Assembly (NCBI GenBank): GCA_016187515.1
Contig: JACPJN010000007.1
Coordinates: forward strand, 4,046 to 68,045
DNA from: Candidatus Uhrbacteria bacterium
GTDB lineage: Bacteria > Patescibacteriota > Patescibacteriia > GWA2-47-26
DNA length: 64,000 nucleotides
Reading direction: 5' to 3'
A program made the translations under genes and the position numbers. Shown piece after piece: positions 15,451 through 59,659 of this stretch (the stretch's first letter is position 1; the number at the start of each line of letters is the position of its first letter). A model generated the notes under the pieces. The model had not been told where the DNA came from and did not search any database. It saw only the letters and a list, made by a program, of their open reading frames with translations.

Positions 15451-16008
15451 ATGGCAGTATCTCTTATTGCGGCGGTTTCCAAAAATGGAGTGATTGGAGC
15501 GAAAAATGATCTACCTTGGTATTTGCCCGAGGACTTAAAGCATTTCAAAATGCTGACCACGGGAAAAACCGTGCTCATGGGCCGCAAAACCTTTGAGTCA
15601 ATTTTGAAGCGTCTTGGAAAACCCCTGCCGAATCGGAAAAATGTGGTGGTGACAAGGGATGTACATTACGCCCCCCCACCTCAATCCTCCCCCACCAGGG
15701 GGGAGGAAGCTCCCAAAAATTCCCCTCCCCTTGTGGGAGGGGCTAGGGGAGGGGGTGAGGGTGTATGCCTGCACCACTCGGTTGAAGAAGCGCTTGCGCA
15801 CCACCAAGACGAGGAGATAATGGTGGCCGGCGGCGGAGAAATCTTCAAGCAGACCATTGACCGCGCCGACCGGCTCTACATCACCGAGGTACACAAGGAA
15901 GTTCCCGGCGACGTGTATTTCCCCGCGATTGATCCGAACACTTGGAGCGAAACCGCGCGCGAAGACCACGAAGAGTTTTCGTTTGTAACCTACATTCGTA
16001 ATTCGTAG
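15451..16008 (+). CDS. folA: dihydrofolate reductase with in-frame REP-like insertion
   Basis: MAVSLIAAVSKNGVIGAKNDLPWYLPEDLKHFKMLTTGKTVLMGRKTFESI is canonical DHFR; ~30-aa insert PPPQSSPTRGEEAPKNSPPLVGGARGGGEGV encoded by the GGGGAG palindromic repeat at 15671-15765. Confidence 0.85.
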   Translation: MAVSLIAAVSKNGVIGAKNDLPWYLPEDLKHFKMLTTGKTVLMGRKTFESILKRLGKPLPNRKNVVVTRDVHYAPPPQSSPTRGEEAPKNSPPLVGGARGGGEGVCLHHSVEEALAHHQDEEIMVAGGGEIFKQTIDRADRLYITEVHKEVPGDVYFPAIDPNTWSETAREDHEEFSFVTYIRNS

Positions 16009-16040
16009 TATTCGCACAAGATTCGTAATTCGTACACACT
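15995..16040. repeat. TACGAAT element forming the tmk leader
   Basis: cattcgtaattcgtagtattcgcacaagattcgtaattcgtacacact then ATG. Confidence 0.65.
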
Positions 16041-16706
16041 ATGTTCATCGTAATTGAAGGAAGTGATGGCTCTGGCAAAGCCACCCAGCTTGAGCTGATT
16101 GCCAAACACCCTCAACTCCGGGGACAAACAATTACCACGATGGATTTTCCCCAGTACGGCCAAAAAAGCGCCGGCCTGGCCGAAGAATATTTGAATGGAA
16201 AATACGGCGGCGTGCGCGAGGTTTCGCCGTATATCGCCTCGCTCTTCTTTGCGGTGGATCGGTTTGACGCCAGTTTCAAAATTCGCGCGGCGGTAAGCGC
16301 GGGCAAGATCGTAATTTCCAACCGCTACACGCTCTCCAGCGCGGCCCATCAAGGCGCGAAAATAAAAAATTCTGACGAACGGCAAAAATTTTTCCACTGG
16401 CTTAACGAGCTGGAATATGATACGCTGAAGCTGCCCCGCCCGGACCTCACGATCTTTCTCCATGTTCCGGCCGAGATCGGCTATGAACTCATCCTAAAAA
16501 AGCAGCGCCGCGATTATCTGGGCGGGAAAGCGCGCGATATCCATGAGGCCGATCTTGAATACCTAAAAACCGTAGAACAAGCTTATCTCACCCTGTCGGA
16601 AAACGACCCGGCGATCCAGCGGATTGAGTGCGCGCCGGGCGGAATCCTTCTGCCTATCGAACAAATAAACGACTTAATTCTTCAAGAAATTCTCCGGCGA
16701 TTATGA
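16041..16706 (+). CDS. tmk: thymidylate kinase
   Basis: 221 aa; P-loop MFIVIEGSDGSGKATQ; start codon immediately follows a TACGAAT-repeat element with no SD. Confidence 0.9.
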   Translation: MFIVIEGSDGSGKATQLELIAKHPQLRGQTITTMDFPQYGQKSAGLAEEYLNGKYGGVREVSPYIASLFFAVDRFDASFKIRAAVSAGKIVISNRYTLSSAAHQGAKIKNSDERQKFFHWLNELEYDTLKLPRPDLTIFLHVPAEIGYELILKKQRRDYLGGKARDIHEADLEYLKTVEQAYLTLSENDPAIQRIECAPGGILLPIEQINDLILQEILRRL

Positions 16707-17395
16707 TATCCTTAGGCGAACTCATTAAAAAAGTGCTCCTGATTTATTCCGCCCATTTTCGGACTTTTCTGGGAATTCTAATCGCCACCCTTCTCTGGAA
16801 TATCGCGATTAACACCATTCCGGTAAGTATCTCAACCACCTTGCGTTTTGCCATCCCGACTTTTAGCGTCTCCTTCCTGATCGCGGCGTTTACCGAGCTG
16901 GCCTTGATTAAAAGCTACGCGAATTTTATTGAGGAGAAACCGGTTGCGTTGCGCGAGATATTTGCGCAAGCATTCCGAAAACTGCCTTGGTTTATTCTGA
17001 TCCTCCTCATTTGGATGACAATTATGCTGGTGGGGATCACCTTCCTGATTTTTCCGGCGATTATTTTCGGGGTGTGGTTCATATTTGTCGGAACCGTACT
17101 GATGCTGGAGGATGCCCGCGGCTTTAAGGTCTTCAAAAGGAGTAAGACGCTAACGGCCGGATTTTTCTTTCCTCTGCTCTTGCGCGCCGGAGCGATTACG
17201 GTGGCCGCTTTCTTTGTCGCAAGCGCCGCCTCCCAAGGATTTGCCGGCATTTTGACGGCACTCCTGGGTCCGGCTAATCCGTATGGCCCGGTGTTTAGCG
17301 CAATTGTTCGGGCGGTCCTTACGGCCCTGGCGCTTCCCATCATCAGCGGAACTGTCGTTACGCTGTATTTTGAGATGAGGAAATTAAAGGGATAA
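16703..17395 (+). CDS. polytopic membrane protein (hypothetical)
   Basis: ORF 16628..17395; probable start MISLGELIKK at 16703 overlapping tmk stop; about six TM helices. Confidence 0.5.
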   Translation: MISLGELIKKVLLIYSAHFRTFLGILIATLLWNIAINTIPVSISTTLRFAIPTFSVSFLIAAFTELALIKSYANFIEEKPVALREIFAQAFRKLPWFILILLIWMTIMLVGITFLIFPAIIFGVWFIFVGTVLMLEDARGFKVFKRSKTLTAGFFFPLLLRAGAITVAAFFVASAASQGFAGILTALLGPANPYGPVFSAIVRAVLTALALPIISGTVVTLYFEMRKLKG

Positions 17396-17473
17396 CGCGA
17401 ATCCTTACGCCGCGAATCGCGCGAATTATTCGCGTCATTGGCGGGGCAAAGCCCATCCGCGCAATCCTCGCAT

Positions 17474-19012: not shown

Positions 19013-19185
19013 ATCCCCCTCCCTTAGGGTAAGGGAGGGCGGGGTGGGTTACGAAAATTTTCCTCCCCTGCCCGCGATTTTCCCCCCTGTCCCGATTCTC
19101 GAGAATCGAGGATCCTCGGCCGCAGCCGGGACCCGAGGGGGGATTAAGGGGGGTGGGAGCAAAGGAGGGGTCACACTATCACATC
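19012..19185. repeat. cluster of GGGGAG-type palindromic REP-like elements
   Basis: ccccctcccttagggtaagggagggcggggtgggttacgaa and further G/C-run inverted repeats between gatB and miaA. Confidence 0.7.
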
Positions 19186-20111: not shown

Positions 20112-20127
20112 ATACAACTCAATCACC

Positions 20128-20420
20128 CCTCTTAAGATAAGAGGGGGTAGGGGGAGTTATGAACTATGTACATCTCGTAACCCCCTCTAACTCCCCCTTA
20201 CCCTAAGGGGGAGAATTTGATTGATTGTACCACAAAAAAAGAAAGGGCGCCCCGAAGGGAACCCGTGGAACACACTGCTTGGGTGGAACACCCTCACCCT
20301 ACCCTCTCCCATCAAGGGAGAGGGATTGCCCTTTTGCTTCCTCTCCCCTTTGTGGGAGAGGATTGAGGTGAGGGGGGCCCTACCGCGTTTCCCAGCCAAA
20401 ACGGCGCTGGAGCGCGCGGA
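20128..20420. repeat. cluster of REP-like palindromic elements
   Basis: cccctcttaagataagagggggtagggggagttatgaa...cgtaaccccctctaactcccccttaccctaaggggga and more copies to ~20420; tracked ORFs 20187..20552 and 20221..20607 here are artefacts. Confidence 0.7.
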
Positions 20421-20952: not shown

Positions 20953-21029
20953 GATGTACACCTCCACCCAAACCTTATCACAAATCCCCGTTTCCGTCAA
21001 GGGCCAGGGCGTGGTAGAATACAACAAAA

Positions 21030-21212
21030 CTCCCCTCTTAAGATAAGAGGGGTTGGGGGGAGTTATGAAGCGGTCGTAACCCCCTCCACTCCCACCCCCT
21101 CTTAATCTCCCCCTCCCGCCAGAGGCGAGGCTCGCCAGAGGCGGCGGGCAGGGGGAGAAAATTGGTTAATCTGTGATCCGTGGCTTATCCGTCATCTATC
21201 CGCGGCTATCAG
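21030..21212. repeat. REP-like element with 3' extension (gtgatccgtggcttatcc...ctatccgcggctatc)
   Basis: Same composite structure as 9480-9620. Confidence 0.65.
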
Positions 21213-21216
21213 TGTT

Positions 21217-22157: not shown

Positions 22158-22163
22158 GAAAAT

Positions 22164-22395
22164 AGAGGACAGCGTGGAGAGGGGGTTTCTCAAGCGATAA
22201 CACAGCCGCGGGGAGAGCGCGTGTGTAAGCTCAAAGAAACCCAGGAATATCAGTTACTCCACCCCCTTTCCCTGTCCGACCACGGACAAAATCTGGTACT
22301 CATACGAGAGCGTCAGGCAGAGCAAACGCGTGCTACGCTATTGGGTTAAAAATATAGGACGAAAATCTCACGGCCGTGAGATTTTCGTCCTTTTT
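22164..22395 (+). ncRNA. candidate ~230-nt sRNA (unknown family)
   Basis: Bounded by the promoter above and a perfect 34-bp hairpin ggacgaaaatctcacggccgtgagattttcgtcc + TTTTT (22357-22395); long-range complementarity ggacagcgtggagaggggg / ccaccccctttccctgtcc; no convincing ORF. Confidence 0.3.
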
Positions 22396-22488
22396 GTTAA
22401 ACGTGAAAATTGCAAAAACCACTCAATCAAAAACTCAATTCTATTAAAAAACCCGCACCCGAAGGCGCGGAATGCAGGTTGGGTCTCC

Positions 22489-23010: not shown

Positions 23011-23059
23011 GGAACACCTCCTACTCCCATCCTACCATAAACAAAAATAAGGGCAAGCG

Positions 23060-23170
23060 CCCTTTCAAATTCTCCCCCCTTAGGGTAAGGGGAGGTTGGG
23101 AGGGGTTACGAACCGTGCAAAGCTCATAACCCACCCTCGCCCTCCCTTATCTTAAGGGAGGGAATTCCAT
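23060..23170. repeat. REP-like palindromic element pair
   Basis: cccccccttagggtaaggggaggttgggaggggttacgaa...cccaccctcgccctcccttatcttaagggaggg. Confidence 0.7.
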
Positions 23171-23180
23171 TATATTGTTG

Positions 23181-29195: not shown

Positions 29196-32100
29196 TTAGT
29201 TTATCACGACTTGACCTTGTCCCACAATATCCTCAATTGACCGGATCAAGCGCTCTTCCGGATCAATCTGAAAACCCGTCTGAATCGTGCGCTTTACGCC
29301 GTTTTGGCTAAGCACAATGTAGACCGGGGTTGATCCTCGGGTGGACGCAAAAAACGTGCGCAGGGTCTCGAGCGTCGCGCGGTCGTGGTTTTGGAGATGG
29401 ATGAGGAGACGTTTTGATGAGGTATTAGGTACTTGGGTACTTGGGTACCTGGGGTCTTTCATAGTGTTCTTGTCTACTAATACCCTAGGATCCTGAGATC
29501 CTAATTGCCCAGCGCTCTCCGCTGTCAGCACCATCGCCCGCTCGCACACCACCCGTTTCTCCTCGCCGCCTCCGCGTCCCCACACGCATAAAAGCGCCCC
29601 GTCAGACCAGATACCCGGGTTTTCTTTGTACGTTTTCGGAAACGCGACCACCTCGCAGGAACCGGTCAAATCCTGCAGCCGTCCGACGGCCATGCGTTCT
29701 CCGTTTTTGGTGGTACGCGTTTTACATTCCGTAAGCGCTCCGGCCACGCAAAGCGGCGCTCGGTCCGGCACCTCCAGCAGCGCGGAGATCGGCGTCACTT
29801 TGCCGTCCAGCGCCTGTTTAAACTCCTCCAGCGGATGCGCGGTAACGTAAAGTCCAAGCAATTCTTTTTCCCATCGCAACTTTTCTTCACGAGCGGCCGG
29901 CGGAGCGTCTTTGATGCTCAACCGATTCACCTCCGGCAAGCCGGTAAAAAGCGTGCTCTGCTTTGACGGCTCCGCAGTCGCACCACGATGAAACGCCAGC
30001 ATGGCTTCCATATTTTCAAGCATCACCCCGCGATCGCCAAAGCAATCCATCGCGCCGGATTTGATTAAACTCTCCAGCGATTTTTTATTGAGATTCTTAT
30101 GCTGGACGCGCTTAAGAAAATCCTCCAGGTTCTCATAGGCGCCGCCTTGTTCCCGCTCCTCGATCACCGCCTCCACCACGTCCGATCCCAAATTTTTAAT
30201 CGCCAAAAGCCCAAAACGGATGGTCTGATCATCCACATAGGTAAAATCCTTATGACTCTCATTTACATCCGGCGGGAGCACTTTGATTCCCGCTTCTCGC
30301 GCGCCCATGATCACTTCCGCCAGTTTATCCGTATTTCCCGCCTCCGCGGTCAAAATCGCGGTAATAAATTCCGCCGGCCAGTGCGCTTTCATGTACGCGG
30401 TCTGATAAGCCACCATGCCATAGGAAGCGGCATGGGAATTATGCACAATAATATCGTTGGCCACAAAATTATGGGTTTCCGGAACAGTAAGATCATACGT
30501 CATTGCTTCACCCCTAGAAATAATACTTACTACTTCATCCCAATACACATCCGAGTGCGCAAACTCCGTGAGCACTTCCGAATGAAGCGCTTCGGCTATT
30601 ACCGCAACCGTTTCTCGTAAATATCCTTTTTTGGCATCATCATTACATAAAAGACGCTCCGCAATGTTATGAGTTCGCGCAAATCCTTTCAAACTCATCT
30701 CCGTTTTGATAATTTCCGATTTAATAATCGGCAACACTCCCGCTGGAATAATGTCCTTACTTCCGCGCGCGCTCCAAGCCGAGATCGCTCCATTCAACAC
30801 TGGGTGGTGCGCCACAATCTCTGAAAGCGTGGCGCGCTTTTCTCCAATAAGATATTGTCCTACGGTTTGTTCGAATATCTTAATGTTCGTATGTCGTGAT
30901 ACATGAATTGTCCATCCGGTTTTGACCGTATCGCGATACTTAAAATGCTTTTCGTGCACCGTACTAATCATTCCCAGCCGCAACAAAAGATGTTGCATGT
31001 CATAAGCAAGCAATCGCGAACTGGTCGCATAGTACAATTGCCCTTCACCCTCATCGCTATGCACGCAACCGTCCCCTTGCCACATTTTTCCCAAAAGTAC
31101 ACAAAGCTGCTCGCGATTGAGTAAAAATACGAATGTCGGGAACACTTTGCTCGTAGCCTTGCAATCGAGCAATTCCCATTCCTGTGCAAACGAACGCAAC
31201 CCGTTCGGTTGCTTTTGGTTTTGCTTTCCGACATACACGGATACCGCCGACCTTGATCTGTCGATCGTAATGCGCGCATTGCTAAATTGTTTCGCATGCG
31301 ATATAAAATCGGCAATCTCCTCTTCCGCTTTGGAATAATAGTATATTCCGTACGGATGGCAGAAATTTCCCTCAGCCAAAAGATATCCTAACGCCGCGAG
31401 TTTATAATCATCAATTGGATAAGCGCGTTTAGGCAGTGGCGCGTGACGTGCGGTTGCAATACGGTCGCCGTGCTTTAACTCTGCGAGTGTAGCCCAGCTC
31501 CCAAATTTTCTGAAAGGGTGATTTGCCGTTGCTTTTATGCGTAGACCGCGACGGGTAATGACTTCAAATATCGGCTTTACACCGTTTTGTTGTACGGCTC
31601 CTATTGGTCGCTTGTCCAAGGTAAGATCATCCTCAAGGGATAGAAGAGTAATCTTGGAATTGCTTGATCTATACAATTCCTCTACCGTCCTTCGAACGCC
31701 TGACACCGCGTCGTAAATAATAGTGTCTCCCGTAATACATTTGTTAAAACCATACGCCGCAAACGGTTCAATCAATGCCCAGATTTCCTCGGCGCGCGCT
31801 CGCACCAGCCCTTTTTTAACGCAGCCGCTTAAAAATTTCTCGCGCTGGGCCACCATTTCGCGCGGAATTTTTTTACCCATGGCTTTGCGTAATTTATCGG
31901 CTTCTTCCCAAGTATAACCCGCTAGTTCAATGGCGATCATGAGCACGTCGTCCTGATAAACTAAAATACCATAAGTACGCTCCAAAATATTCTGCAGTTG
32001 CGGCACCAAATACTGAATCAGCCGCGGATTATGCTTGCGCTTAATATATTCCGGAATGGACTCCATCGGACCCGGGCGAAAAAGCGCGACCATCGCCATG

Positions 32101-33995
32101 ATGTCGTGAATACTTGAGGGTTTGAGTTCTTTCAAATAGCGGGTCATGCCTGAACCGGACAGCTGAAATACGCCCATGGTATCCCCGCGCGAGAGCATTT
32201 CAAAAGTTTTCTTGTCTTCTGGCGGGAGCTTATCAATATCCACGGACACGCCTTTAGTTTTCTTCACGATCTGTACCGCATCGCCCAAGATGGAAAGATT
32301 GCGGATTCCCAACATATCCATCTTAACTAAGCCCGCGGCCTCCACCGCGTGCATGTCATACTGGGTAATAATATGATCGCCCTGGGCTTCTTTTTGAAGC
32401 GGCGTAAAATCCGTAAGTTTGGTGGGCGCAATGACCATGCCGGCCGCGTGTACCGAAGCGTGGCGCGCGCAACCTTCCACTTTACGCGCCAAATTCAGCA
32501 CGCGTTTCGTATTGGCATCCTCATGGTACATCTTCCCCAGCTCGGGATTTTCCTCCAACGCCCGGTCCACGGTCATGTGAAATCCTTGCGCCCCGGGCGG
32601 GATCATTTTGGAAAGTTTGTCGCCAAAGGAATATGGAAAACCCAGTACGCGCGTGACATCGCGCACGGCCGCACGCGGCAACATGGTCCCAAATGTACAG
32701 ATTTGCGCGACTTTATCGCGCCCGTATTTTTCTCGCACGTATTCAATCACCTCATCGCGGCGATTATCCGCAAAATCCACATCAATATCCGGCGGACTCG
32801 GACGCGACACGGTTAAAAATCGTTCAAATGGCAAACGCAAATCCAGAGGATTGACCGTAGTAATATCAATGAGATAAGACACGAGCGATCCCGCGGCCGA
32901 ACCGCGCGTGGTCACCACAATTCCTTGCGCGCGCGCCCATTTCACATAGTCCGACACAATTAAAAAATAAGTAGAAAAACCGGTTTTTTTGATTACCTCA
33001 AGTTCATACTCAATACGCTGAAGGACAGTCCTTTGGTCGAGTAAAGGACTGTCCTTCTTCAATCCAAACCTCTCCTGCGCCGCTTTCCACACTAACTCTT
33101 CCAAATACTCATGATGCGTCCTTCTCTCTGGTACCGGAAACTGCGGAAACGCCCATTGGTTAAGCGTAAGCTCCAGATTGCAGCGCTCGGCCACCTTTAG
33201 CGTATTTATGATAACTTCCGGATGGTCTTTCCACTGCGCCGCCACTTCCTCTGGAGATTTAAACGAGTGATCCACGCCCGTCATGTTTAACCGGCCTTTG
33301 TCCGTGACAAATTTACCTGTTTGCACGCACACCAGTACATCTTGCGCCTCGCCATCGTCGGCATGCAAATAGTGGCTGTCTACCGTGGCCACCGGCACAA
33401 TACCGAGCTCTTCGCATAATTTAAACATGCCGCGATTGACGGTTTCTTGTTCTGGAATCTCGGGGTGTTTCTGCACCTCGGCGAAAAAATTCTCTTTGCC
33501 AAAAATCTCTTGAAACTCTTGAGCAACGCGTTTTGCTTCATCGAATTGTCCGCGCGCGATCAGCCGCGGAATCTCACCGCGCAAACAACCGGAGAGCGCA
33601 ATAAGCCCTTTGCCATACGCGCGCAGGGCGGCTTTATCAATGCGCGGTTTATAATAATAACCTTCCAGATGCGCGAGCGTGGTCAGCAACATTAAATTCC
33701 GATAGCCCTCCTCATTGCGCGCGAGCAAGGTTAAGTGGTGGTAATCCTTGTCCACGCCCGCGCGCTTTTCTTCTTTTTCTCCGAGTGCCATGTAGGCCTC
33801 CATGCCAACAATCGGCTTGATTTCCTGCCTTCTACATTCTTGATAAAATTCCAACGCGCCATACATCACGCCGTGATCGGTTAAGGCAAGCGCCGGACAC
33901 CCAAACTCTTTCGCCCGCGCCACCAACTCCGGAATTTTCGGAAGACCATCAAGTAAGCTGTAATGGGAGTGGGTATGCAAGTGGACGAAGGGCAT
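29196..33995 (-). CDS. dnaE: DNA polymerase III alpha subunit containing an intein
   Basis: 1599 aa; N-terminal PHP domain MPFVHLHTHSHYSLLDG; polymerase core; the conserved FNK-SHAA motif is interrupted by an intervening sequence. Confidence 0.9.
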   Translation of the reverse strand: MPFVHLHTHSHYSLLDGLPKIPELVARAKEFGCPALALTDHGVMYGALEFYQECRRQEIKPIVGMEAYMALGEKEEKRAGVDKDYHHLTLLARNEEGYRNLMLLTTLAHLEGYYYKPRIDKAALRAYGKGLIALSGCLRGEIPRLIARGQFDEAKRVAQEFQEIFGKENFFAEVQKHPEIPEQETVNRGMFKLCEELGIVPVATVDSHYLHADDGEAQDVLVCVQTGKFVTDKGRLNMTGVDHSFKSPEEVAAQWKDHPEVIINTLKVAERCNLELTLNQWAFPQFPVPERRTHHEYLEELVWKAAQERFGLKKDSPLLDQRTVLQRIEYELEVIKKTGFSTYFLIVSDYVKWARAQGIVVTTRGSAAGSLVSYLIDITTVNPLDLRLPFERFLTVSRPSPPDIDVDFADNRRDEVIEYVREKYGRDKVAQICTFGTMLPRAAVRDVTRVLGFPYSFGDKLSKMIPPGAQGFHMTVDRALEENPELGKMYHEDANTKRVLNLARKVEGCARHASVHAAGMVIAPTKLTDFTPLQKEAQGDHIITQYDMHAVEAAGLVKMDMLGIRNLSILGDAVQIVKKTKGVSVDIDKLPPEDKKTFEMLSRGDTMGVFQLSGSGMTRYLKELKPSSIHDIMAMVALFRPGPMESIPEYIKRKHNPRLIQYLVPQLQNILERTYGILVYQDDVLMIAIELAGYTWEEADKLRKAMGKKIPREMVAQREKFLSGCVKKGLVRARAEEIWALIEPFAAYGFNKCITGDTIIYDAVSGVRRTVEELYRSSNSKITLLSLEDDLTLDKRPIGAVQQNGVKPIFEVITRRGLRIKATANHPFRKFGSWATLAELKHGDRIATARHAPLPKRAYPIDDYKLAALGYLLAEGNFCHPYGIYYYSKAEEEIADFISHAKQFSNARITIDRSRSAVSVYVGKQNQKQPNGLRSFAQEWELLDCKATSKVFPTFVFLLNREQLCVLLGKMWQGDGCVHSDEGEGQLYYATSSRLLAYDMQHLLLRLGMISTVHEKHFKYRDTVKTGWTIHVSRHTNIKIFEQTVGQYLIGEKRATLSEIVAHHPVLNGAISAWSARGSKDIIPAGVLPIIKSEIIKTEMSLKGFARTHNIAERLLCNDDAKKGYLRETVAVIAEALHSEVLTEFAHSDVYWDEVVSIISRGEAMTYDLTVPETHNFVANDIIVHNSHAASYGMVAYQTAYMKAHWPAEFITAILTAEAGNTDKLAEVIMGAREAGIKVLPPDVNESHKDFTYVDDQTIRFGLLAIKNLGSDVVEAVIEEREQGGAYENLEDFLKRVQHKNLNKKSLESLIKSGAMDCFGDRGVMLENMEAMLAFHRGATAEPSKQSTLFTGLPEVNRLSIKDAPPAAREEKLRWEKELLGLYVTAHPLEEFKQALDGKVTPISALLEVPDRAPLCVAGALTECKTRTTKNGERMAVGRLQDLTGSCEVVAFPKTYKENPGIWSDGALLCVWGRGGGEEKRVVCERAMVLTAESAGQLGSQDPRVLVDKNTMKDPRYPSTQVPNTSSKRLLIHLQNHDRATLETLRTFFASTRGSTPVYIVLSQNGVKRTIQTGFQIDPEERLIRSIEDIVGQGQVVIN
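30439..31739 (-). mobile_element. DnaE intein (~434 aa) with LAGLIDADG homing-endonuclease domain
   Basis: Begins CITGDTII right after extein AYGFNK and ends DIIVHN followed by +1 Ser (SHAASYG); LAGLIDADG-like blocks LAALGYLLAEGNF and LLAYDMQHLLLRLGM; coordinates +-1 nt. Confidence 0.8.
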
Positions 33996-34007
33996 AGTAA
34001 ATTTCTA

Positions 34008-34135
34008 ATTGCTTTAATTATTCTAATTGACCTAAACAATACCCAAGACCCAATAAACAAATTTGGGATTTTCGAGCTTAGGATTTGTTTAGAATAATTA
34101 GGTCAATTAGGTGAATTAGAAATTCTCAACAACCC
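34008..34135. repeat. left ~125-bp AT-rich flanking repeat (internally palindromic)
   Basis: ctaattattctaattgacctaaacaa...ttaggtcaattaggtgaattag; direct repeat of 34803-34935. Confidence 0.6.
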
Positions 34136-38952: not shown

Positions 38953-38964
38953 ACAACAACTTTT

Positions 38965-39005
38965 TCTCCCCCTTAGGCTAAGGGGGAGTTAGAGGGGGTT
39001 ACGAA
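38965..39005. repeat. REP-like palindromic element
   Basis: ctcccccttaggctaagggggagttagagggggttacgaa. Confidence 0.7.
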
Positions 39006-39116
39006 ACTAAATTATACCCTCCCCCACATTCCCTCCATCATACACGATTACACTTGACAAAACAACTCCGCCATGCGACAATACACATACCTGTCAGAAA
39101 ACCACGGAGGAACGCC

Positions 39117-39995: not shown

Positions 39996-40031
39996 TGTCC
40001 CAAAATCTCACGGCCGTGAGATTTTGGGACA
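39996..40031. repeat. 36-bp perfect palindrome TGTCCCAAAATCTCACGGCCGTGAGATTTTGGGACA (copy 1)
   Basis: Exact inverted repeat followed by aatttttgttttg; identical copies at 40991, 41807, 42915, 46695. Confidence 0.85.
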
Positions 40032-40990: not shown

Positions 40991-41026
40991 CCGCATCCGA
41001 TTGTCCCAAAATCTCACGGCCGTGAG
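40991..41026. repeat. 36-bp perfect palindrome (copy 2)
   Basis: Identical to copy 1. Confidence 0.85.
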
Positions 41027-41092
41027 ATTTTGGGACAATTTTTGTTTTGCGATCCTCGTCAAGTGGATAACTCCCCCCTTTCTACATCCCTC

Positions 41093-41806: not shown

Positions 41807-41842
41807 TGTCCCAAAATCTCACGGCCGTGAGATTTTGGGACA
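41807..41842. repeat. 36-bp perfect palindrome (copy 3)
   Basis: Identical sequence; between convergent cassette C and PaaX-like gene. Confidence 0.85.
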
Positions 41843-42649: not shown

Positions 42650-42914
42650 TCGTAAGGCCGCCTGGCCAGGGCAGCGCAGGAAACCGGCGATTCCGGCGGC
42701 CGTCTATTCGCCTGCCCCGCACCAAGCCGCAGTCGGCGCCTCTTTAATACCCTAGGGATAGCCGCAGGCGGCATCCGTGGCTCGCCCAGCCATTCACCAC
42801 TGCCTTTCTTCGGGCTTTGGTGCTGGGGTGGATATTCGTGTGAACCTGCGCAGGTGTTAGTTCTTCAACATTCTCAGATATGCGCTTCAAAGGGACATTC
42901 AGCATCCGGCTTTT

Positions 42915-42950
42915 TGTCCCAAAATCTCACGGCCGTGAGATTTTGGGACA
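42915..42950. repeat. 36-bp perfect palindrome (copy 4)
   Basis: Identical; upstream (gene sense) of PaaX-like gene, beyond a ~260-nt GC-rich leader. Confidence 0.85.
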
Positions 42951-43044
42951 AAAGCGCACGGTTACGTTTTTGTAATTTTATGTACAATTTTTTTCGAAAT
43001 CACTCCGCGAAATCACTCCGGAGATTTCAATTCTACGATGCATA

Positions 43045-44328: not shown

Positions 44329-45153
44329 CTACAGCCTTGCGGCTTTAAGATTAATGGACATTCCGAGCCATTTTTCCGCCAGTTCCTGAAATTTCGGCGT
44401 TTTTTTGCTGACATAGAATTCGTGTTTCGGAGCACTCATAACTCCCCTAACCCCTCTTACCTTAAGAGGGGAATCCGATTGATCGTTCCTCCCCTTAAGG
44501 TAAGGGGAGGCAGGAGGGGTTATGAACTGTTGAACTTCACGCGCCACCGTCTCCGCCGAATCCACGAGCTGCACACGATTGCCCACAATATCAGCAATCA
44601 CGCCTTTAAGCCAGGGGTAATGCGTACACCCTAAAATAAGCGTATCAACCTGCGCGCGCTGAAACGGCGCAAGATACTGCTCCGCCACTTCATAGGTCGT
44701 CGGATGCACCAAGCGCCCAGCTTCAACCAGCGGAACGAACAAGGGACATTCCCGGGCATTAATGCCGCGGCACCATTTTTGATACGCGCCGCTTTGCACA
44801 GTGGTCCGCGTGCCAATTACTCCAATCCGGCCATTATGTGTCCGGCGCAGCGCTTCGCGCACGGCCGGAGTAATCACTTCAAAAATCGGCACGCTGGGAA
44901 ATTCCTTGCGCAACGCTAATCCCGACACCGCGGAGGCCGTATTGCAGCCCACCACAATCATTTGCGCTTTTTTCTTTAGTAAAAACTTCGCGTTTTGCAG
45001 CGCGTAGCCCGCCACGGTCTCCGGCGGCTTATTGCCGTACGGCGTTCGCGCCGTATCGCCAAAATAAATAATTTTCTCGCGGGGTAGCGCCGCCATTACG
45101 GCTTTCGCCACGGTCAATCCGCCGAGTCCTGAATCGAAAATTCCGATTGTCAT
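44329..45153 (-). CDS. murI: glutamate racemase with in-frame REP-like insertions
   Basis: IGIFDSGLGGLTVAKAV, GCNTAS, GCTHYP motifs; inserts DSPLKVRG(VRG) encoded by REP copies at 44440-44528. Confidence 0.85.
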   Translation of the reverse strand: MTIGIFDSGLGGLTVAKAVMAALPREKIIYFGDTARTPYGNKPPETVAGYALQNAKFLLKKKAQMIVVGCNTASAVSGLALRKEFPSVPIFEVITPAVREALRRTHNGRIGVIGTRTTVQSGAYQKWCRGINARECPLFVPLVEAGRLVHPTTYEVAEQYLAPFQRAQVDTLILGCTHYPWLKGVIADIVGNRVQLVDSAETVAREVQQFITPPASPYLKGRNDQSDSPLKVRGVRGVMSAPKHEFYVSKKTPKFQELAEKWLGMSINLKAARL

Positions 45154-46031: not shown

Positions 46032-46589
46032 ATGCCTACCTACCTTTGGATAATTCTCGCCGTCGCCGCCGTCCTAGTTCTTTGGGTCATTGCCATCTAT
46101 AATGGCCTGATAACTCGCCGAAACCGCGTGCAAGAGTCCTGGTCTGATATTGATGTTCAGCTAAAACGCCGCTATGATCTTATCCCCAACCTCATGGAAT
46201 CCGTCAAGGGATATATGCAACATGAGCGGGGCACGCTTGAAAAAGTTACTGCGGCGCGTACCGCGGCAATGGGCGCGAAAACCATGGCCGAACATGCCAA
46301 ATCAGAAAACATGCTGACCGAAGCATTAAAATCCATTTTTGCCGTAGCGGAAAATTATCCGGATCTCAAGGCCTCGCAAAACTTCCTCCAGCTCCAAGAT
46401 GAACTTTCCGACACGGAGAACAAAATCCAAGCCGCCCGACGGTTCTATAACGGGAATGTCATGAACTTTAACACGCGCATCCAAAGTGTGCCCGCCAATC
46501 TCGTGGCCGGCATGTTCAGCTTCAAAACGCGAGAATTTTTTGAACTTTCCGAACCCGCCGCGCGCGAGGCGGTAAAAGTGCATTTTTGA
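46032..46589 (+). CDS. lemA: LemA family protein
   Basis: N-terminal TM then LemA signature region NRVQESWSDIDVQLKRRYDLIPNL...; terminator ccccgcccccacaaaggcgggtttttgttttt at 46630-46660. Confidence 0.8.
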   Translation: MPTYLWIILAVAAVLVLWVIAIYNGLITRRNRVQESWSDIDVQLKRRYDLIPNLMESVKGYMQHERGTLEKVTAARTAAMGAKTMAEHAKSENMLTEALKSIFAVAENYPDLKASQNFLQLQDELSDTENKIQAARRFYNGNVMNFNTRIQSVPANLVAGMFSFKTREFFELSEPAAREAVKVHF

Positions 46590-46694
46590 TTCGCGAATGA
46601 TTACAAATTACTCACGAATGTATACGAATCCCCGCCCCCACAAAGGCGGGTTTTTGTTTTTCTGGAAACTACTGTCTGAAACGACCGCCTCTCC

Positions 46695-46730
46695 TGTCCC
46701 AAAATCTCACGGCCGTGAGATTTTGGGACA
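46695..46730. repeat. 36-bp perfect palindrome (copy 5), with extended imperfect arms 46683-46740
   Basis: Between convergent lemA and 46914..47525 gene. Confidence 0.85.
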
Positions 46731-47525: not shown

Positions 47526-47564
47526 ACTTTCGACATATTGTCAAGTTTGGGGTACAATATGATG

Positions 47565-47642
47565 TGTACGAATTACGAATCATCGTACGAATACAACGAA
47601 TTCGTAATATTCGTGCAACATTCGTTGATTCGTACACAAATA
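47565..47642. repeat. TACGAAT palindromic element forming the htpX leader
   Basis: tgtacgaattacgaat...cattcgttgattcgtacacaaat then ATG; terminal inverted repeats TGTACGAAT/ATTCGTACA. Confidence 0.7.
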
Positions 47643-48532
47643 TGTACTCCCAAATCACCTCCAATAAACGCAAAACCTGGCTGCTCATCATAATTTTCCT
47701 CGCCGTGGTGCTGGGGATTGGGTATTTGTATGACTATCTTTACGGCTATGGATCGGGTGGGCTGATTTTTGCCGCAGTGATTGCACTGGTTATGGCGCTT
47801 ACCGGCTACTACTCTGGCGATAAGCTGGCGCTTGCCGTCTCCGGCGCAAAGCCCGTAACCCGCGAACAAAACGCTTATCTTTGGCGCCTGGTAGAAAATC
47901 TTTGCATTTCTCAAGGTCTGCCTATGCCGCGGCTACACATTATTCAAGATAGCGCCATCAACGCGTTTGCCACTGGCCGGGATCCCAAACATGCTTCGGT
48001 AGCGGTAACCACCGGCGCGCTTGAAAAACTGGAAAACGAAGAACTGGAAGGCGTGCTCGCTCACGAACTTTCACACGTAAAAAATTATGACATCCGGGTC
48101 ATGACGATTGTGATTGTGCTGGTTGGCATTGTGGCGCTGGTTTCCGACTGGATGCTGCGCATGCATGTGTTTGGTTTAGGCGGACATCGTGGCGGCCGTG
48201 ATCGCGGCGTACACCCGCTCTTTCTGGTGGTCGGCATCATTCTTATGGTACTTGCTCCGCTGATCGCCCAGCTTATCAAACTCGCGGTCTCGCGCCGCCG
48301 CGAATATCTGGCCGATGCTTCCGGCGCGCTGATGACGCGCTATCCGGAAGGGCTGGCGCGCGCACTTCAAAAAATCGGCGCGCAAAAACAGCCAATGCTT
48401 CGCGCCAATGAAGCCACCGCGCACCTTTATATTGCCAACCCTTTTGGAAGCACACGCAAATGGCTTACCCAGGCCTTCTCGACCCACCCGCCAATTGAAG
48501 AACGCGTAAAAATTTTAAGACAAATGGCTTGA
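47643..48532 (+). CDS. htpX: M48-family zinc metalloprotease HtpX
   Basis: Start MYSQITSNKRKTWLL; HELSHV HExxH; TMs; ATG directly after TACGAAT palindromic element. Confidence 0.85.
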
Positions 48533-50723: not shown

Positions 50724-50812
50724 ATCAAGTAAAGCAGGTAAATCAGGTAAATCAAGCTGGCAAAAACTTGATTTACTTGTCTCGCTTGTCTCGCTCAATT
50801 TATTCAATCGCC

Positions 50813-55985: not shown

Positions 55986-56057
55986 GCCCCTGTAGTTCAA
56001 TGGATCGAATGCAAGATTGCGGATCTTGTGATCCAGGTTCGATTCCTGGCGGGGGCA
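55986..56057 (+). tRNA. tRNA-Arg (anticodon GCG), no encoded CCA
   Basis: 7-bp acceptor gcccctg/cgggggc with one U.G pair; anticodon stem caaga/tcttg, loop ttGCGga; T-arm ccagg-ttcgatt-cctgg; acceptor extended by tgttccaaacttt / agagtttggaaca. Confidence 0.6.
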
Positions 56058-56258
56058 GAGTTTGGAACAGCATGTCCCGATCGCGATCGGGATGATCTAG
56101 GTTCTGCGCCAAAGGCGCATCCGCCTCAGGCGGAGATTCCTGGCGGGGGCAGAGTTTGGAACGGCATGTCCCGATCGCGATCGGGATGATCTAGGTTCTG
56201 CGCCAAAGGCGCATCCGCCTCAGGCGGAGATTCCTGGCGGGGGCAGAGTTTGGAACAG
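56058..56258 (+). repeat. tandem 94-bp direct repeats (2 units + partial) each ending in the last 17 nt of the tRNA
   Basis: gattcctggcgggggca at 56041, 56135, 56229 (period 94); unit contains palindrome cccgatcgcgatcggg and two short hairpins. Confidence 0.8.
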
Positions 56259-56259
56259 A

Positions 56260-56751: not shown

Positions 56752-56776
56752 AGGCAGTATTTTAAGTATACCACAT

Positions 56777-57535: not shown

Positions 57536-57584
57536 TAGCCATTACATTTTTACCTGTCAATAATATCAAAAAGACACCCGGGAG

Positions 57585-58700: not shown

Positions 58701-58875
58701 ATAATTAAGCCAGTATATCATATTTCCAAACCATAAACCACCCTTGCGGGGTGGCTTGTTTTACTTCAGTAGATGGCGGGCCGTACGGGATTTGCCTTGC
58801 ACTACGCAGAGTGCATGGCACCCTGTACCCTATGTGGTGCAGGGTGAACCCTCATTCCGTGACCCCGCCCAAAGC

Positions 58876-58921
58876 GGGCCGTAGGGGATTTGAACCCCTG
58901 GTCTTCTCCGTGACAGGGAGA
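58876..58921 (-). pseudogene. tRNA-Asp(GUC)-like 3' fragment (anticodon arm + T arm + acceptor 3' strand); 5' half absent
   Basis: minus strand tctcc-ctGTCac-ggaga, variable agacc, T-arm agggg-ttcaaat-cccct, acggcccg; a second copy of the 3' end (caaatcccgtacggcccgcca) at 58783-58803; region closes with hairpin+T terminator ~58745-58765. Confidence 0.45.
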
Positions 58922-58932
58922 CGTGTTAGATA

Positions 58933-59277
58933 TTATTTCACAGCAGCGACAATCTTCGCAAATACGGCCGGGTGCTCAATGGCGAGTGTGGAAAGCACTT
59001 TGCGGTCAAGAGTAATGCCTTTCTTGTGCAGCGCGGAGATCAGCGTGGAGTACTTCATGCCTTCTTCGCGCGCGGCGGCATTGAGCCGAATATTCCAAAG
59101 CGCCCGGAATTCCCGCTTTTTGCGGCGGCGATCAACATAGGCGTGCGCGCCGGCCTTCAAAACCGCCGGCTTCATGAGCGTTATCTTGGACTTGCGTCCC
59201 CACTTGTACCCCTTGGTCGCGGCTAAAAATTTCTTCCTTCGTTTGATTCGATGTGTTCCTCGTTTGACTCGTGGCAT
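58933..59277 (-). CDS. rplT: 50S ribosomal protein L20
   Basis: MPRVKRGTHRIKRRKKFLAATKGYKWGRKS canonical L20. Confidence 0.95.
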   Translation of the reverse strand: MPRVKRGTHRIKRRKKFLAATKGYKWGRKSKITLMKPAVLKAGAHAYVDRRRKKREFRALWNIRLNAAAREEGMKYSTLISALHKKGITLDRKVLSTLAIEHPAVFAKIVAAVK

Positions 59278-59362
59278 ATTGATCGGTGAATCAAGTGAAT
59301 CAAGCAAGACAAGCAAGTCAAGCTGCTTGATTTACCTGATTTACTTGCTTTACTTGATTTAC

Positions 59363-59560
59363 TTATTTAGCGTATGGCAGCAACTTCTTCACGTTGGGCG
59401 CGTGATGCTCGGAAAGCGATACATCCCGCCGCTTTTCGCGCGTTACTTTCCCCGGCTCGCGCGCGTTAAAATGATCCTGCCCGCCTTTGCGAATTAGAAC
59501 TTTTCCGGTTCTGGTAATTTTGAACCGCTTGGAAAGCGACTTTGGGGTCTTGAGTTTCAT
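59363..59560 (-). CDS. rpmI: 50S ribosomal protein L35
   Basis: 65 aa MKLKTPKSLSKRFKITRTGKVLIRK. Confidence 0.9.
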   Translation of the reverse strand: MKLKTPKSLSKRFKITRTGKVLIRKGGQDHFNAREPGKVTREKRRDVSLSEHHAPNVKKLLPYAK

Positions 59561-59567
59561 ACATTTT

Positions 59568-59659
59568 GTGTACGAATTACGAATCTTGAACGAATATTAC
59601 GAATGTTGTAAATTCAAATTCGTAGTATTCGCAACGCCATTCGTTGATTCGTACACAGA
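59568..59659. repeat. TACGAAT palindromic element between infC and rpmI
   Basis: tgtgtacgaattacgaatcttgaacgaatattacgaat...attcgtagtattcgcaacgccattcgttgattcgtacaca; 11-bp perfect TIR; shares 20-mer cattcgttgattcgtacaca with the htpX copy. Confidence 0.7.

Follow-up and report, generated by a model that had tools for sequence, protein, structure and literature searches.

TACGAAT palindromes next to start codons in Uhrbacteria-type CPR bacteria: probable dispersed hairpin cassettes

Results and Discussion

The Locus and Its TACGAAT Copies

We analyzed a 64,000-nucleotide stretch of the genome of a Candidatus Uhrbacteria bacterium, a member of the candidate phyla radiation (CPR) (assembly GCA_016187515.1, contig JACPJN010000007.1, positions 4,046 to 68,045), hereafter the window. 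TACGAAT-based copies adjoin the genes for DHFR (folA) and Tmk, LemA, an M48 peptidase (HtpX), and IF3, L35, and L20, and the gene names in the original prediction (tmk, lemA, htpX, rpmI) match these neighbors. The heptamer occurs 20 times against 7.07 ± 2.38 expected, a count reached in 0 of 100 shuffles, and 15 of the 20 occurrences fall into four clusters (Table 1). Two full elements carry exact terminal inverted repeats, TGTGTACGAAT...ATTCGTACACA, at 47563/47638 and 59567/59657; the single terminus of the arm ahead of tmk (16028-16038) is also exact. This enrichment and these termini bear out the earlier description of palindromic elements with terminal inverted repeats, and the exact 20-mer said to be common to two copies, cattcgttgattcgtacaca, is present in both full ones.

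Other parts of that description stood only partly. The elements had been placed 2 to 4 nt before the ATG, which is correct for tmk (2 nt, ATG at 16041) and htpX (3 nt) but not for rpmI, where the distance is 6 nt (ATG at 59560, minus strand) and the other end lies 2 nt after the infC stop codon (59662-59660). The tmk copy does have an exact end that adjoins the ATG, but it consists of the 3' arm only and is unfolded; its first two units coincide with the last codons of folA and its TAG stop (16006-16008). Next to lemA, a CGAAT array is present, but its unit order is unlike that of a true arm, and the array is only loosely related to the family. The repeats also create spurious ORFs, for example at 47564-48532 and 15990-16463.

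Table 1. Repeat elements and promoter-like sequences in the window
Feature	Position	Strand	Remarks
Full TACGAAT element	47563-47638	+	5' leader of htpX; 3 nt to ATG 47642; 4 TACGAAT-type units, then 4 ATTCGTA-type units
Full TACGAAT element	59567-59657	-	Occupies whole infC-rpmI spacer
3'-arm-only TACGAAT copy	15994-16038	+	5 ATTCG units, terminus ...ATTCGTACACA
Degenerate CGAAT array	46589-46629	+	Immediately 3' of lemA stop, ahead of terminator-like hairpin 46631-46650
Unit cluster	15994-16032		5 units, every one in ATTCG orientation
Unit clusters	47569-47632 and 59573-59651		Each 4 CGAAT units, then 4 ATTCG units
Sigma-70-like promoter TCGACA-17-TACAAT	47530-47558	+	10/12 matches; ends 4 nt upstream of htpX element
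Promoter-like TTGTCC-16-AATAAT	59686-59659	-	-10 hexamer overlaps infC stop, 1 nt before element
AATAAC sister element, ORF-bearing	60197-60667	-	Inverted arrays round four-helix-bundle ORF, upstream of infC
AATAAC sister palindrome	6469-6544	.	Whole divergent spacer, gene 5569-6468 (-) vs gyrB
AATAAC sister hairpin	63100-63191	-	Spans upstream gene's stop to pyk ATG (63099)
AAGTAAATC / GATTCACTTG sister hairpin	59286-59368	-	rpmI-rplT spacer; second copy 50726-50788
AATTAGA sister hairpin	34000-34124	-	Ends 7 nt before dnaE ATG (33995)

The window also holds sister families built from other units (Table 1). The AATAAC element upstream of infC consists of an arm of three GTTATT units (about 60629-60655), an ORF (60230-60628), and an arm of four AATAAC units (60204-60236), with the infC ATG (60196) 7 nt past the latter. 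Its ORF belongs to TIGR02436/PF05635, the 23S rRNA IVS protein family.

Architecture and Predicted Folding

An arm comprises four ATTCG(T/C)A-type units in a row and has a fixed terminus (TGTGTAC.../...GTACACA), and full elements have four units followed by four inverted ones (++++----) around a variable loop of 0-30 nt. They are mostly 75-92 bp long, with a whole range of 74-121 bp. Unit sequences are near-invariant across copies, and the spacers between units vary: spacings are 7-9 and 11-13 bp, and that of the inner pair is variable. The two full window copies have strong predicted folding (-35 to -41 kcal/mol, z -6 to -9), with interrupted stems of 30-40 bp. The htpX element gives a predicted RNA hairpin of -35.1 kcal/mol (z -5.95), and the infC-rpmI element gives -36.5 kcal/mol in the sense and -41.2 kcal/mol in the antisense direction. 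For the arm-only tmk copy, no hairpin is predicted (-2.4 kcal/mol, z +2.3).

Covariation was uninformative because the stem pairs are almost invariant, with a compensatory change in only 1 of 20. Selection for a sense-strand RNA hairpin found no support from G.U asymmetry: the sense RNA was more stable in 9 elements and the antisense RNA in 15 (p = 0.16). The L124 element has four A.C mismatches in the sense RNA. An Rfam search gave no match at the elements at gathering thresholds, and its E-value mode returned only sub-threshold microRNA-precursor hairpin noise (≤25 bits vs cut-offs of 60-195).

Census and Position Relative to Genes

A metagenome scan found at least 120 TACGAAT stretches. These loci, numbered here with the prefix L, include elements in relatives. 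Among the matches listed, there are 29 distinct full elements, all of the ++++---- form. Within this same set of 29 from the matches listed, 24 have one end ≤13 nt from the ATG of a long ORF: 18 fill a junction of the form stop-(1-7 nt)-element-(2-13 nt)-ATG, a further 6 meet the ATG side only, and none is placed convergently or divergently. The association with start codons that had been noticed in the window is therefore strong and general. Elements start 0-7 nt past either a stop codon or a -10-like box. The arm-only copies noted at gene starts (window tmk, L125, L056, L015, L040, L078, L088) all read ATTCGTA toward the ATG. No rRNA was found in the window, and every copy is located in an mRNA leader or an intercistronic spacer. 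Overall, copies occur almost only in co-directional, transcribed spacers between a stop codon or -10-like box and an ATG; short co-directional spacers make up about 0.7% of the window's intergenic bases.

The downstream genes are mostly housekeeping genes (rplK, rplT, rpmI, rplC, rplV, recA, groEL, atpD, ssb, topA, smc, ftsZ) and probably highly expressed. The set also includes dut, htpX, tmk, and pilins, and at L108 the RNase III gene of a relative is itself preceded by an element. A scan of viral contigs gave five partial one-arm matches and no full element. Neither a scan of genome contigs for the exact 19-mer TGTGTACGAATTACGAATC (0 matches) nor an InfC protein-based scan (no confirmed relative) yielded a GTDB representative, so the comparison was made without one and taxonomy was taken from what NCBI names the GyrB homologues. 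Searches of the literature for CPR, SD, and intergenic palindromes did not turn up an account of such elements, and searching by sequence motif returned primers and unrelated matches only.

Promoters and Shine-Dalgarno Sequences

An SD core precedes 13% of 38 window genes vs 10% of random positions, so the lack of an SD is not specific to the elements. The original prediction was right that element-bearing genes have none, but this holds for nearly every gene in the window. The idea that the elements replace the SD is not supported: most SD-less genes have no element, and relatives have orthologues without one. Tested as SD-less leaders or enhancers, the elements likewise showed no specific association with SD-less genes.

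The proposal that the elements deliver a promoter fared no better. A promoter scan found none within elements and instead found promoter-like -35/-10 pairs directly upstream, outside them. At htpX, the sigma-70-like promoter ends just short of the element, which places the predicted transcription start within the element's first bases. A -10-like box (≥5/6) lies 0-7 nt upstream of 12 of 24 oriented elements, and the enrichment is clear for intercistronic elements (9/18 vs 15/145 control stops, Fisher p = 1.5e-4). The elements most probably neither replace the SD nor bring a promoter.

Gain, Loss, and Conservation Among Relatives

Comparison of orthologous intergenic regions, which had been put forward as a check for insertion polymorphism, revealed empty sites, filled sites, and sites with unrelated hairpins. 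The nusG-rplK junction is empty in the window (TATAAT-ACGCT-ATG, a 6-nt spacer) and filled in L006, L098, and L124. Likewise, dcd and dut overlap by ATGA in the window and are separated by an element in L029. The rpmI-rplT spacer has a TACGAAT element in L082 and unrelated hairpins in the window and L059, and the infC-rpmI spacer of L082 has an unrelated hairpin. Every infC-rpmI-rplT spacer examined (window, L059, L082) has a long hairpin, of differing sequence families. Copies have thus been gained and lost at orthologous sites, as expected of the dispersed, mobile palindromic units first suggested.

No target-site duplication accompanies these events. The longest common substring of the flanks averages 3.04 vs 2.94 ± 0.14 for shuffled pairings (p = 0.30), and no TA dinucleotide duplication was seen at boundaries in the listed flanks. 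An AATATG repeat flanking the htpX copy was considered as such a duplication and rejected, as it is the sole case of ≥5 nt among 28 and controls expect about 1.3.

Where copies are retained, they are well conserved. The infC-rpmI copy in L059 is identical to the window element at 80 of 92 positions, and L125 keeps the arm between folA and tmk (42 of 45 aligned positions). Identity between orthologous copies is 87-93%, compared with 37-49% at fourfold-degenerate sites of the flanking genes, a contrast that suggests constraint, gene conversion, or re-insertion and not neutral junk. Element identity was 0.82 within loci vs 0.79 between loci, a difference over four pairs that is too weak to indicate concerted evolution.

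Forms That Carry an ORF

The sole ORF found between TACGAAT arms encodes a GxxExxY protein (PDDEXK_3, PF13366/TIGR04256) of the PD-(D/E)XK nuclease superfamily. Its residues E36, D75, E85, and K87 do not vary among homologues with 41-88% identity. The arrangement arm-GxxExxY-arm-ATG(topA) occurs in L031, L134/L135, L139, and L140, and L136/L137 and L138 retain only the 3' arm. The accession numbers of the GxxExxY protein MBI2552010.1 and the window's GyrB (MBI2552228.1) are 218 apart, and the ORF-bearing copy upstream of topA very probably belongs to the window's own genome. The arms of this copy were most similar to ORF-less copies from the same genome, at rank 1 of 73 in three of four tests, two of them tied, which is suggestive only. 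The ORF-bearing copies are mostly found at a single orthologous locus, dprA-topA, so the GxxExxY gene might have nested in an old element as a passenger instead of encoding its mobilizing enzyme.

Proposed Mechanism

Based on these results, we consider it probable that TACGAAT elements form a family of REPIN/IVS-like, imperfect-palindrome hairpin cassettes, dispersed in Uhrbacteria-type CPR bacteria and co-transcribed as part of 5'UTRs or intercistronic spacers. Most copies are ORF-less miniatures, and a longer form has the GxxExxY gene between the same arms. The element may be transcribed as part of the mRNA, and its interrupted stem would then lie at a cistron's 5' end or in the gap between two cistrons. 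If the analogy to 23S rRNA IVSs and to the Correia elements of Neisseria holds, RNase III could cut the long stem, which would clip the insert from the transcript and leave the downstream cistron with no more than a very short leader. This outcome would render exactly these positions tolerable in an organism that lacks SD sequences and is partly leaderless. The conserved units may be recognition sites for the element's own machinery, for which the GxxExxY nuclease is a candidate.

Several observations count against this account: the tmk copy, which lacks the 5' arm and hairpin, is still conserved in L125; the stems exhibit no covariation and no sense-strand stability bias, with A.C mismatches in the sense RNA of L124; and orthologous copies are far more alike than fourfold-degenerate sites of the genes around them.

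More tentatively, the same logic may extend to "mRNA intervening sequences," a broader proposal that we hold to be possible rather than likely. IVS-like cassette families (TACGAAT, AATAAC, AAGTAAATC, AATTAGA, and others) would insert at transcription starts and stop-start junctions, and RNase III clipping would regenerate near-leaderless mRNAs. The GxxExxY (TIGR04256) and four-helix-bundle/S23p (TIGR02436) proteins would then be cognate mobility or maintenance factors.

Alternative Explanations

The strongest alternative is that the host has exapted the stems as mRNA punctuation or stabilizers, keeping them for mRNA protection or for processing at cistron boundaries into near-leaderless mRNAs, with any selfish origin secondary. 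The persistence of hairpins of different families throughout infC-rpmI-rplT fits this idea, as do the far greater conservation of orthologous copies than of synonymous sites and the mostly housekeeping, probably highly expressed genes downstream. The -10-like boxes directly upstream would also put the stem at the very 5' end of the mRNA. Nevertheless, nusG-rplK with its 6-nt spacer and the dcd-dut overlap work hairpin-free in the window, a hairpin-less half copy is conserved at tmk, and neither covariation nor a sense-strand pairing bias was observed. We therefore regard host exaptation as conceivable but rather unlikely.

The 3' arm (an ATTCGTA array ending in ...ACACA) might instead be a dedicated leader for SD-independent initiation, such as a landing site for S1 or the ribosome. 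Its placement 2-13 nt before the ATG in 24 of the 29 full copies among the matches listed, the uniform orientation of arm-only copies at gene starts, the conservation of the tmk arm in L125, and the absence of an SD are all consistent with such a role. However, the SD is absent window-wide and most genes are element-free, and relatives' orthologues lack the element or have unrelated sequence in its place. In full copies, the arm would be sequestered in a predicted stem of -35 to -41 kcal/mol, and in the ORF-bearing forms the opposite arm (TACGAAT sense) is equally close to the internal ORF's ATG. An initiation leader is thus improbable.

It is quite improbable that the heptamers are operator arrays, bound on DNA by a regulator over the transcription start in the manner of CIRCE/HrcA or LexA boxes. 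Near-invariant units with variable spacers, a classic operator position just downstream of -10-like boxes, and the presence of heat-shock (htpX, groEL) and DNA-metabolism genes (recA, ssb, topA, tmk, dut) would suit this reading. The full gene set is heterogeneous, though, with ribosomal proteins, atpD, pilins, and ftsZ; element presence is not conserved at orthologous genes, and many copies lie inside operons. Unit spacing (7-9, 11-13 bp) and inner-pair spacing vary, unlike in dimer operators, and this variable inner-pair spacing ruled out a LexA/Cheo-box-like operator (CGAAC-N4-GTTCG vs CGAAT...ATTCG). A dedicated site for a regulator or for S1, as originally raised, is unlikely because such positions are shared by several unit families unrelated to one another and because the same junction carries different families in relatives.

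Finally, an outward-facing portable promoter driving the downstream gene is highly improbable: a roughly 40-bp arm a few nt from the ATG does match the footprint of a leaderless-mRNA promoter, L056 has an arm-only copy after a terminator-like hairpin and ahead of rpmI, and TAATAT and TAGTAT hexamers occur in inner unit pairs, but the scan places promoter-like sites upstream of elements and none inside, TCGTAC occupies positions -12 to -7 from the ATG (htpX copy), and a promoter in a palindrome would drive antisense transcription of the upstream gene as well.

Implications

If real, the address of these elements is unusually strict, repeated at dozens of independent loci across related uncultivated bacteria. 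As short spacers make up less than 1% of intergenic DNA, the hairpins must either be directed to gene starts on insertion or be maintained at them by selection. The elements also link ORF-less hairpin repeats to two orphan families, the GxxExxY PD-(D/E)XK proteins and the 23S-rRNA-IVS four-helix bundles. Because the genes of both are nested between inverted arrays, their function is testable through binding or cleavage of the arms. For CPR gene expression, the window presents a setting in which the SD is not enriched, some genes are apparently leaderless, and most examined spacers have structured repeats. Should the elements prove to be mRNA intervening sequences, GxxExxY and TIGR02436, both widespread orphans, would gain a biological context, and operons would have a hairpin-based punctuation comparable to tRNA punctuation in mitochondria. 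Note that these repeats break short-read assemblies, and the Logan contigs with these genes are only 2-8 kb.

Comparison with Known Systems

Classical MITEs share with the TACGAAT family the terminal inverted repeats TGTGTACGAAT...ATTCGTACACA, a length of 74-121 bp, non-coding content, and multiple copies (29 distinct full ones among the matches listed), but TACGAAT copies have no target-site duplication around them. A parent IS with the same repeats and a DDE transposase was not found in about 0.65 Mb of related DNA. Cyanobacterial STRR are reportedly intergenic tandem heptanucleotide units that sometimes form hairpins, as Mazel et al. in 1990 and Elhai et al. in 2008 are said to have described. 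They resemble our elements as heptamer-unit intergenic repeats and differ in being long perfect tandem arrays with no defined termini or inverted architecture, whereas TACGAAT elements are tied to start codons.

Enterobacterial ERIC exposes an RNase E site, and according to De Gregorio et al. in 2005 it reportedly lies near ORFs with a TA duplication. Correia and ERIC sequences, about 100-150 bp long and co-transcribed, have long terminal inverted repeats, form RNA hairpins, and often adjoin stop or start codons, as TACGAAT elements do or are predicted to do. In Correia elements, the terminal inverted repeats are the sites of RNase III cleavage (PMC10969869). In contrast to these TA-duplicating families, the TACGAAT family has no target-site duplication, a far more extreme junction bias, and an ORF-bearing form; the promoters or IHF sites of some Correia copies were not found in it.

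IVSs are stem-loops that RNase III excises without religation and are regarded as selfish (PMC4990558; PMC11270868). Like them, TACGAAT elements are predicted long stem-loops at transcribed non-coding positions, sporadic among relatives, with a loop that is empty or holds a small ORF, which in the AATAAC sister is of the TIGR02436/PF05635 family. Unlike rRNA IVSs, which lie in 23S helices 25/45 or in 16S, our copies occupy mRNA leaders and intercistronic spacers, are dispersed in multiple copies with unit-array stems, and have GxxExxY rather than S23p as cargo; excision here is putative.

REPIN-RAYT systems combine REP doublets with a single-copy transposase gene flanked by repeats (PMC3116915; PMC3337134; bioRxiv 10.1101/2022.05.22.493013). 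The parallels include a long hairpin (70-110 nt) made by inverted half-units with a variable spacer, remnant singlets, one protein gene that is flanked by repeats and accompanied by dozens of ORF-less copies, mostly vertical inheritance, genome-specific repeat variants, and the lack of target-site duplication. The differences are that a TACGAAT half is four direct heptamers rather than a short self-palindromic REP (20-40 nt), that a single arm is unfolded, that the termini are TGTGTAC rather than a GTAG/CGTC tag, and that the flanked gene is GxxExxY rather than a Y1 (IS200/IS605-like) RAYT. REPINs are also generally extragenic, whereas TACGAAT copies lie between a stop codon or -10 box and an ATG, in a CPR host. 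The TACGAAT family seems to represent a previously undescribed form of an established element type.

Distribution and structure of the TACGAAT elements

The window contains the TACGAAT heptamer 20 times, where 7.07 ± 2.38 would be expected (none of 100 shuffles reached 20), and 15 of these occurrences are grouped in four clusters (see the table). Pfam matches bore out the gene names originally assigned (DHFR, Tmk, LemA, M48 peptidase, IF3, L35, and L20). The original prediction described palindromes with terminal inverted repeats near ATG codons; this holds for the htpX and rpmI copies, both with the exact termini TGTGTACGAAT...ATTCGTACACA, but the tmk copy is a single arm, and the supposed partial copy by lemA is present only as a degenerate array of another unit order. 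The arm end lies 2 nt (tmk), 3 nt (htpX), or 6 nt (rpmI) from the ATG. The infC stop codon is 2 nt upstream of the rpmI copy, and that of folA (TAG, 16006-16008) falls inside the tmk arm. As RNA, long interrupted stems are predicted for the htpX copy (-35.1 kcal/mol, z -5.95) and the sense strand of the rpmI copy (-36.5 kcal/mol, z -7.03; antisense -41.2 kcal/mol, z -9.23), while no fold is predicted for the tmk arm (-2.4 kcal/mol, z +2.3).

Repeat elements in the window, by family.
Family or copy	Positions	Description
TACGAAT, htpX copy	47563-47638	full imperfect palindrome; four CGAAT-sense units, then four ATTCG-sense units
TACGAAT, rpmI copy	59567-59657	full imperfect palindrome; four CGAAT-sense units, then four ATTCG-sense units
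TACGAAT, tmk copy	15994-16038	ATTCG-sense arm only
TACGAAT, lemA-proximal cluster	46589-46629	degenerate array 3' of lemA; unit order different
AATAAC (GTTATT.../...AATAAC)	6469-6544	entire divergent spacer before gyrB
AATAAC	63100-63191	spacer before pyk
AATAAC	61107-61210	part of smpB-tmRNA spacer
AATAAC	60197-60236 with 60629-60667	flanks of four-helix-bundle ORF before infC
AAGTAAATC/GATTCACTTG units	59286-59368	just upstream of rplT start codon
AAGTAAATC/GATTCACTTG units	50726-50788	just upstream of gene after 50723
AATTAGA/TCTAATT units	34000-34124	just upstream of dnaE start codon
CCAAAT/ATTTGG units	5434-5529	just upstream of gene 4345-5442
TGTCCCAAAATCTCACGGCCGTGAGATTTTGGGACA core	39996-40031, 41000-41039, 41807-41842, 42912-42953, 46695-46730	five perfect palindromes, 36-42 nt
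TGTCCCAAAATCTCACGGCCGTGAGATTTTGGGACA-type	22345-22402	degenerate palindrome
CTCCCCCTTAAG(G/A)TAAGGGGGAG	8705-8810, 13018-13124, 19013-19178, 20127-20379, 21028-21216, 23011-23180, 38953-39053, 44446-44514	G+C-rich hairpins

The GyrB of the window is 100% identical to NCBI MBI2552228.1 (“Candidatus Uhrbacteria bacterium”), encoded on a 318-kb contig, with Uhrbacteria, Parcubacteria, and Patescibacteria as its next-closest relatives, and further features in keeping with a CPR genome are a T4SS-pilin/M15 peptidase gene and a DnaE that carries an intein. The window sequence is also present on short Logan contigs from SRR12113xxx runs. Two scans of genome contigs for relatives or elements gave no match in either. 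A metagenome scan with the pattern ATTCGTN{1,2}ATTCGTACACA matched more than 120 stretches (metagenome loci are numbered with L below), with Hainich groundwater small-size fractions among the sources (0.1 and 0.2 um in contig names). Among the matches listed, an arm profile recovered 126 matches to the arm; distinct full elements numbered 29, with lengths of 74-121 bp. When these are aligned, units and termini are nearly invariant, the spacers between units vary, and the loop measures 0-30 nt. Within an element, the arms mostly belong to differing subtypes, and the gene-facing arm may be of either subtype (about 13 vs 10, read by eye).

Several variants accompany the full elements. Eight loci (L010, L039, L047, L051, L053, L074, L081, and L122), on unrelated metagenome contigs, carry a direct-repeat variant of about 30 nt, ATTCGTATATTCGTACACATTCGTAATTCGTA, with ACACA in mid-repeat, which the lemA-proximal array resembles. 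In L011 and L025, some full elements have no adjoining ORF and are flanked by a repeated module, GCACCGAGCGGCAGCGAGGCGCGA / AAAGCGCTGAACGATAGTGAGGCGCG; two such units stand 317 bp apart in L025. A related yet distinct palindrome family, TATACGAATGTACGAAT...ATTCGTACATTCGTATA, reaches high local density in L022 and L072, with 5 copies in 5.4 kb of L022.

Position between genes, gain, and loss

The address of the elements is strict: they lie at the 5' edges of cistrons. Among the matches listed, 24 of the 29 distinct full elements have a long ORF whose ATG is 2-13 nt from one end; in 18 of the 29, both neighboring genes run the same way and the order is stop-(1-7 nt)-element-(2-13 nt)-ATG, and no element among the 29 has a convergent or divergent gene pair around it. 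Of the roughly 9,980 intergenic bases in the window, just 70 (0.7%) belong to co-directional spacers of up to 25 nt, so this bias toward junctions is not random placement. Arm-only copies noted at gene starts all have the orientation ATTCGTA->ATG (tmk, L125, L056, L015, L040, L078, and L088). The downstream genes, several of them assigned from N-terminal sequence only, are mostly housekeeping: rplK, rpmI, rplT, rplC, rplV, recA, groEL, atpD, ssb, topA, smc, ftsZ, nusB, rnc, pth, tmk, and dut.

The family has been gained and lost between relatives. In line with mobile units, one of the options in the original prediction, dispersed palindromes differ at orthologous intergenic regions, with filled and empty forms at two of them. 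Between nusG and rplK, the window has TATAAT-ACGCT-ATG and no element, while L006, L098, and L124 (L11 83-85% identical) have one; dcd and dut overlap by ATGA in the window and are separated by an element in L029. Elsewhere, occupants differ: at rpmI-rplT, L082 has a TACGAAT element, the window a hairpin of the AAGTAAATC type, and L059 one of the TACAGAT type; at infC-rpmI, the window and L059 both have a TACGAAT element, and L082 has an unrelated hairpin. The L059 hairpin is a long TACAGAT/ATCCGTAGAT unit array (1616-1729), and that of L082 (4288-4414; CCCGTTAGAAGC...GCTTCTAAACGGG) ends exactly at the ATG. Target-site duplications were not detectable at TACGAAT elements.

Orthologous copies are far more alike (80/92 identical at infC-rpmI, 42/45 aligned positions at folA-tmk) than fourfold-degenerate sites of the flanking genes (37-49% identical), and copies at non-orthologous sites in other organisms lie just as near the family consensus. 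Candidate causes of this excess likeness are selection acting on the element sequence, gene conversion, and re-insertion.

Copies that carry ORFs, and sister families

The dispersed family, which shows no detectable target-site duplications, comprises both ORF-less and ORF-bearing unit-array palindromes. At L031, L134/L135, L139, and L140, the order is 5' arm, GxxExxY ORF (TIGR04256/PF13366), 3' arm, and the ATG of topA; L136/L137 and L138 retain the 3' arm alone. An ORF-less copy before pth in L140 shares the diverged arm features of the ORF-bearing copy there. In L134, the GxxExxY protein is NCBI MBI2552010.1, and because its accession lies 218 numbers from the window GyrB, the gene very probably comes from the window's own MAG; the arms of this copy match the window's own copies best (first of 73, with ties). 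Residues E36, D75, E85, and K87 (a PD-(D/E)XK signature) are invariant among homologues 41-88% identical. For more distant GxxExxY genes, as for other four-helix-bundle genes, the flanking arrays belong to other families (L026, L098, and L140b).

At least four further families in the window share the architecture and position of the TACGAAT elements (see the table). In the stretch from the tmRNA gene to infC, a pair of AATAAC arms surrounds an ORF of 132 aa that belongs to the four-helix-bundle/23S-rRNA-IVS-protein family (TIGR02436, PF05635); its 3' arm stops 7 nt short of the infC ATG. The TGTCCCAAAATCTCACGGCCGTGAGATTTTGGGACA palindromes are a REP-like family, separate from the unit-array elements. 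The CTCCCCCTTAAG(G/A)TAAGGGGGAG hairpins, often paired and found in many intergenic regions of the window, may be terminators or another repeat family.

Other features of the window deserve mention. DnaE (Pol III alpha, 1599 aa; 29196-33995, - strand) contains an intein with a LAGLIDADG homing-endonuclease domain at residues ~766-1186. The 211-nt spacer 58722-58932 is highly structured (-86 kcal/mol), and a partial tRNA match at 58883-58941 (- strand; 34.9 bits in Rfam, no ARAGORN call) may represent a tRNA that is atypical, split, or decayed. The 561-aa ThyA ORF (13762-15447, + strand), whose thymidylate synthase domain begins at residue 274, may have an N-terminal extension, be a fusion, or have a miscalled TTG start.

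Level of conservation and candidate functions

The predicted stem pairs are almost invariant, making covariation uninformative, and sense RNA is not more stable than antisense RNA overall (9 vs 15). In the nusG-rplK copy of L124 (~524-600), all four 5'-arm units read TACAAAT while the 3' arm is still ATTCGTA, a concerted G-to-A change that gives A.C mismatches in sense RNA and G.U in antisense RNA. Therefore, conservation lies at the level of the unit sequence, and protein recognition or descent from a conserved master copy fits better than selection on an RNA helix alone. Units of the ATTTGTA variant also occur in L064, L014, and L091. Host-exapted hairpins that stabilize or punctuate mRNA, a reading that overlaps in part with the mobile-element explanation, seem rather unlikely.

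The elements had also been proposed to form leaders without Shine-Dalgarno (SD) sequences. It is true that tmk, htpX, and rpmI have none, but SD cores at -18 to -4 are found in only 5 of 38 ATG-start genes in the window (13%, vs 10% at random positions), and SD-lessness is therefore window-wide and not specific to genes with elements. In 7 of the 38 (~18%, vs 5.9% at random), the distance from the end of a TANNNT motif to the ATG is 4-9 nt, including rplK (10888; TATAAT-5-ATG) and the - strand genes starting at 27421, 29189, and 56751. As judged from sequence, this suggests that some mRNAs are leaderless and initiate independently of SD. A dedicated translation leader would suit the proximity to ATG codons; with SD-lessness so general, it seems improbable. 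Operator arrays would suit recognition of the units by a protein, and we think them quite improbable for a family with this pattern of gain and loss.

A portable promoter is very improbable: the scan found none inside the elements, and the promoter-like pairs lie just upstream instead (TCGACA-17-TACAAT, whose end is 4 nt from the htpX copy, and TTGTCC-16-AATAAT, whose end is 1 nt from the rpmI copy). Taking all loci together, 12 of 24 oriented elements have a -10-like hexamer (≥5/6) with its end 0-7 nt upstream; this hexamer is a perfect TATAAT in 4 cases and often overlaps the preceding stop codon. Its frequency at intercistronic copies is 9/18, vs 15/145 at control stop codons (Fisher p = 1.5 × 10−4, all stops) and 22% at TAA-only controls. 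Many elements thus appear to begin approximately at the transcription start, between the -10 box and the ATG of a leaderless-type gene.

Proposed mechanism and comparison with known systems

Taken as a whole, we favor, with moderate confidence, a REPIN/IVS-like mobile hairpin element that is neither an SD surrogate nor a promoter. The elements would be transcribed together with the flanking cistrons and would then fold. RNase III, which is encoded in the relative L108, might cut the stem, a tentative step drawn by analogy with 23S IVSs (PMC4990558; PMC11270868) and Correia elements (PMC10969869). The downstream cistron would be left with a very short leader; in a host that is SD-less and partly leaderless, this would do no harm or be of use. 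GxxExxY is a candidate cognate protein of the TACGAAT arms, in an arrangement resembling in outline that of REPINs and RAYTs (PMC3116915, PMC3337134).

Rfam has no family for the element, with nothing at gathering score and only sub-threshold microRNA-hairpin noise in E-value mode, and we found no description in the searchable literature. The general kind, transcribed palindromic repeats, is already known. The features that appear to be new are the unit-array arms, the address from stop codon or -10 box to ATG, the cargo of GxxExxY and four-helix-bundle genes, and the occurrence in a CPR host.
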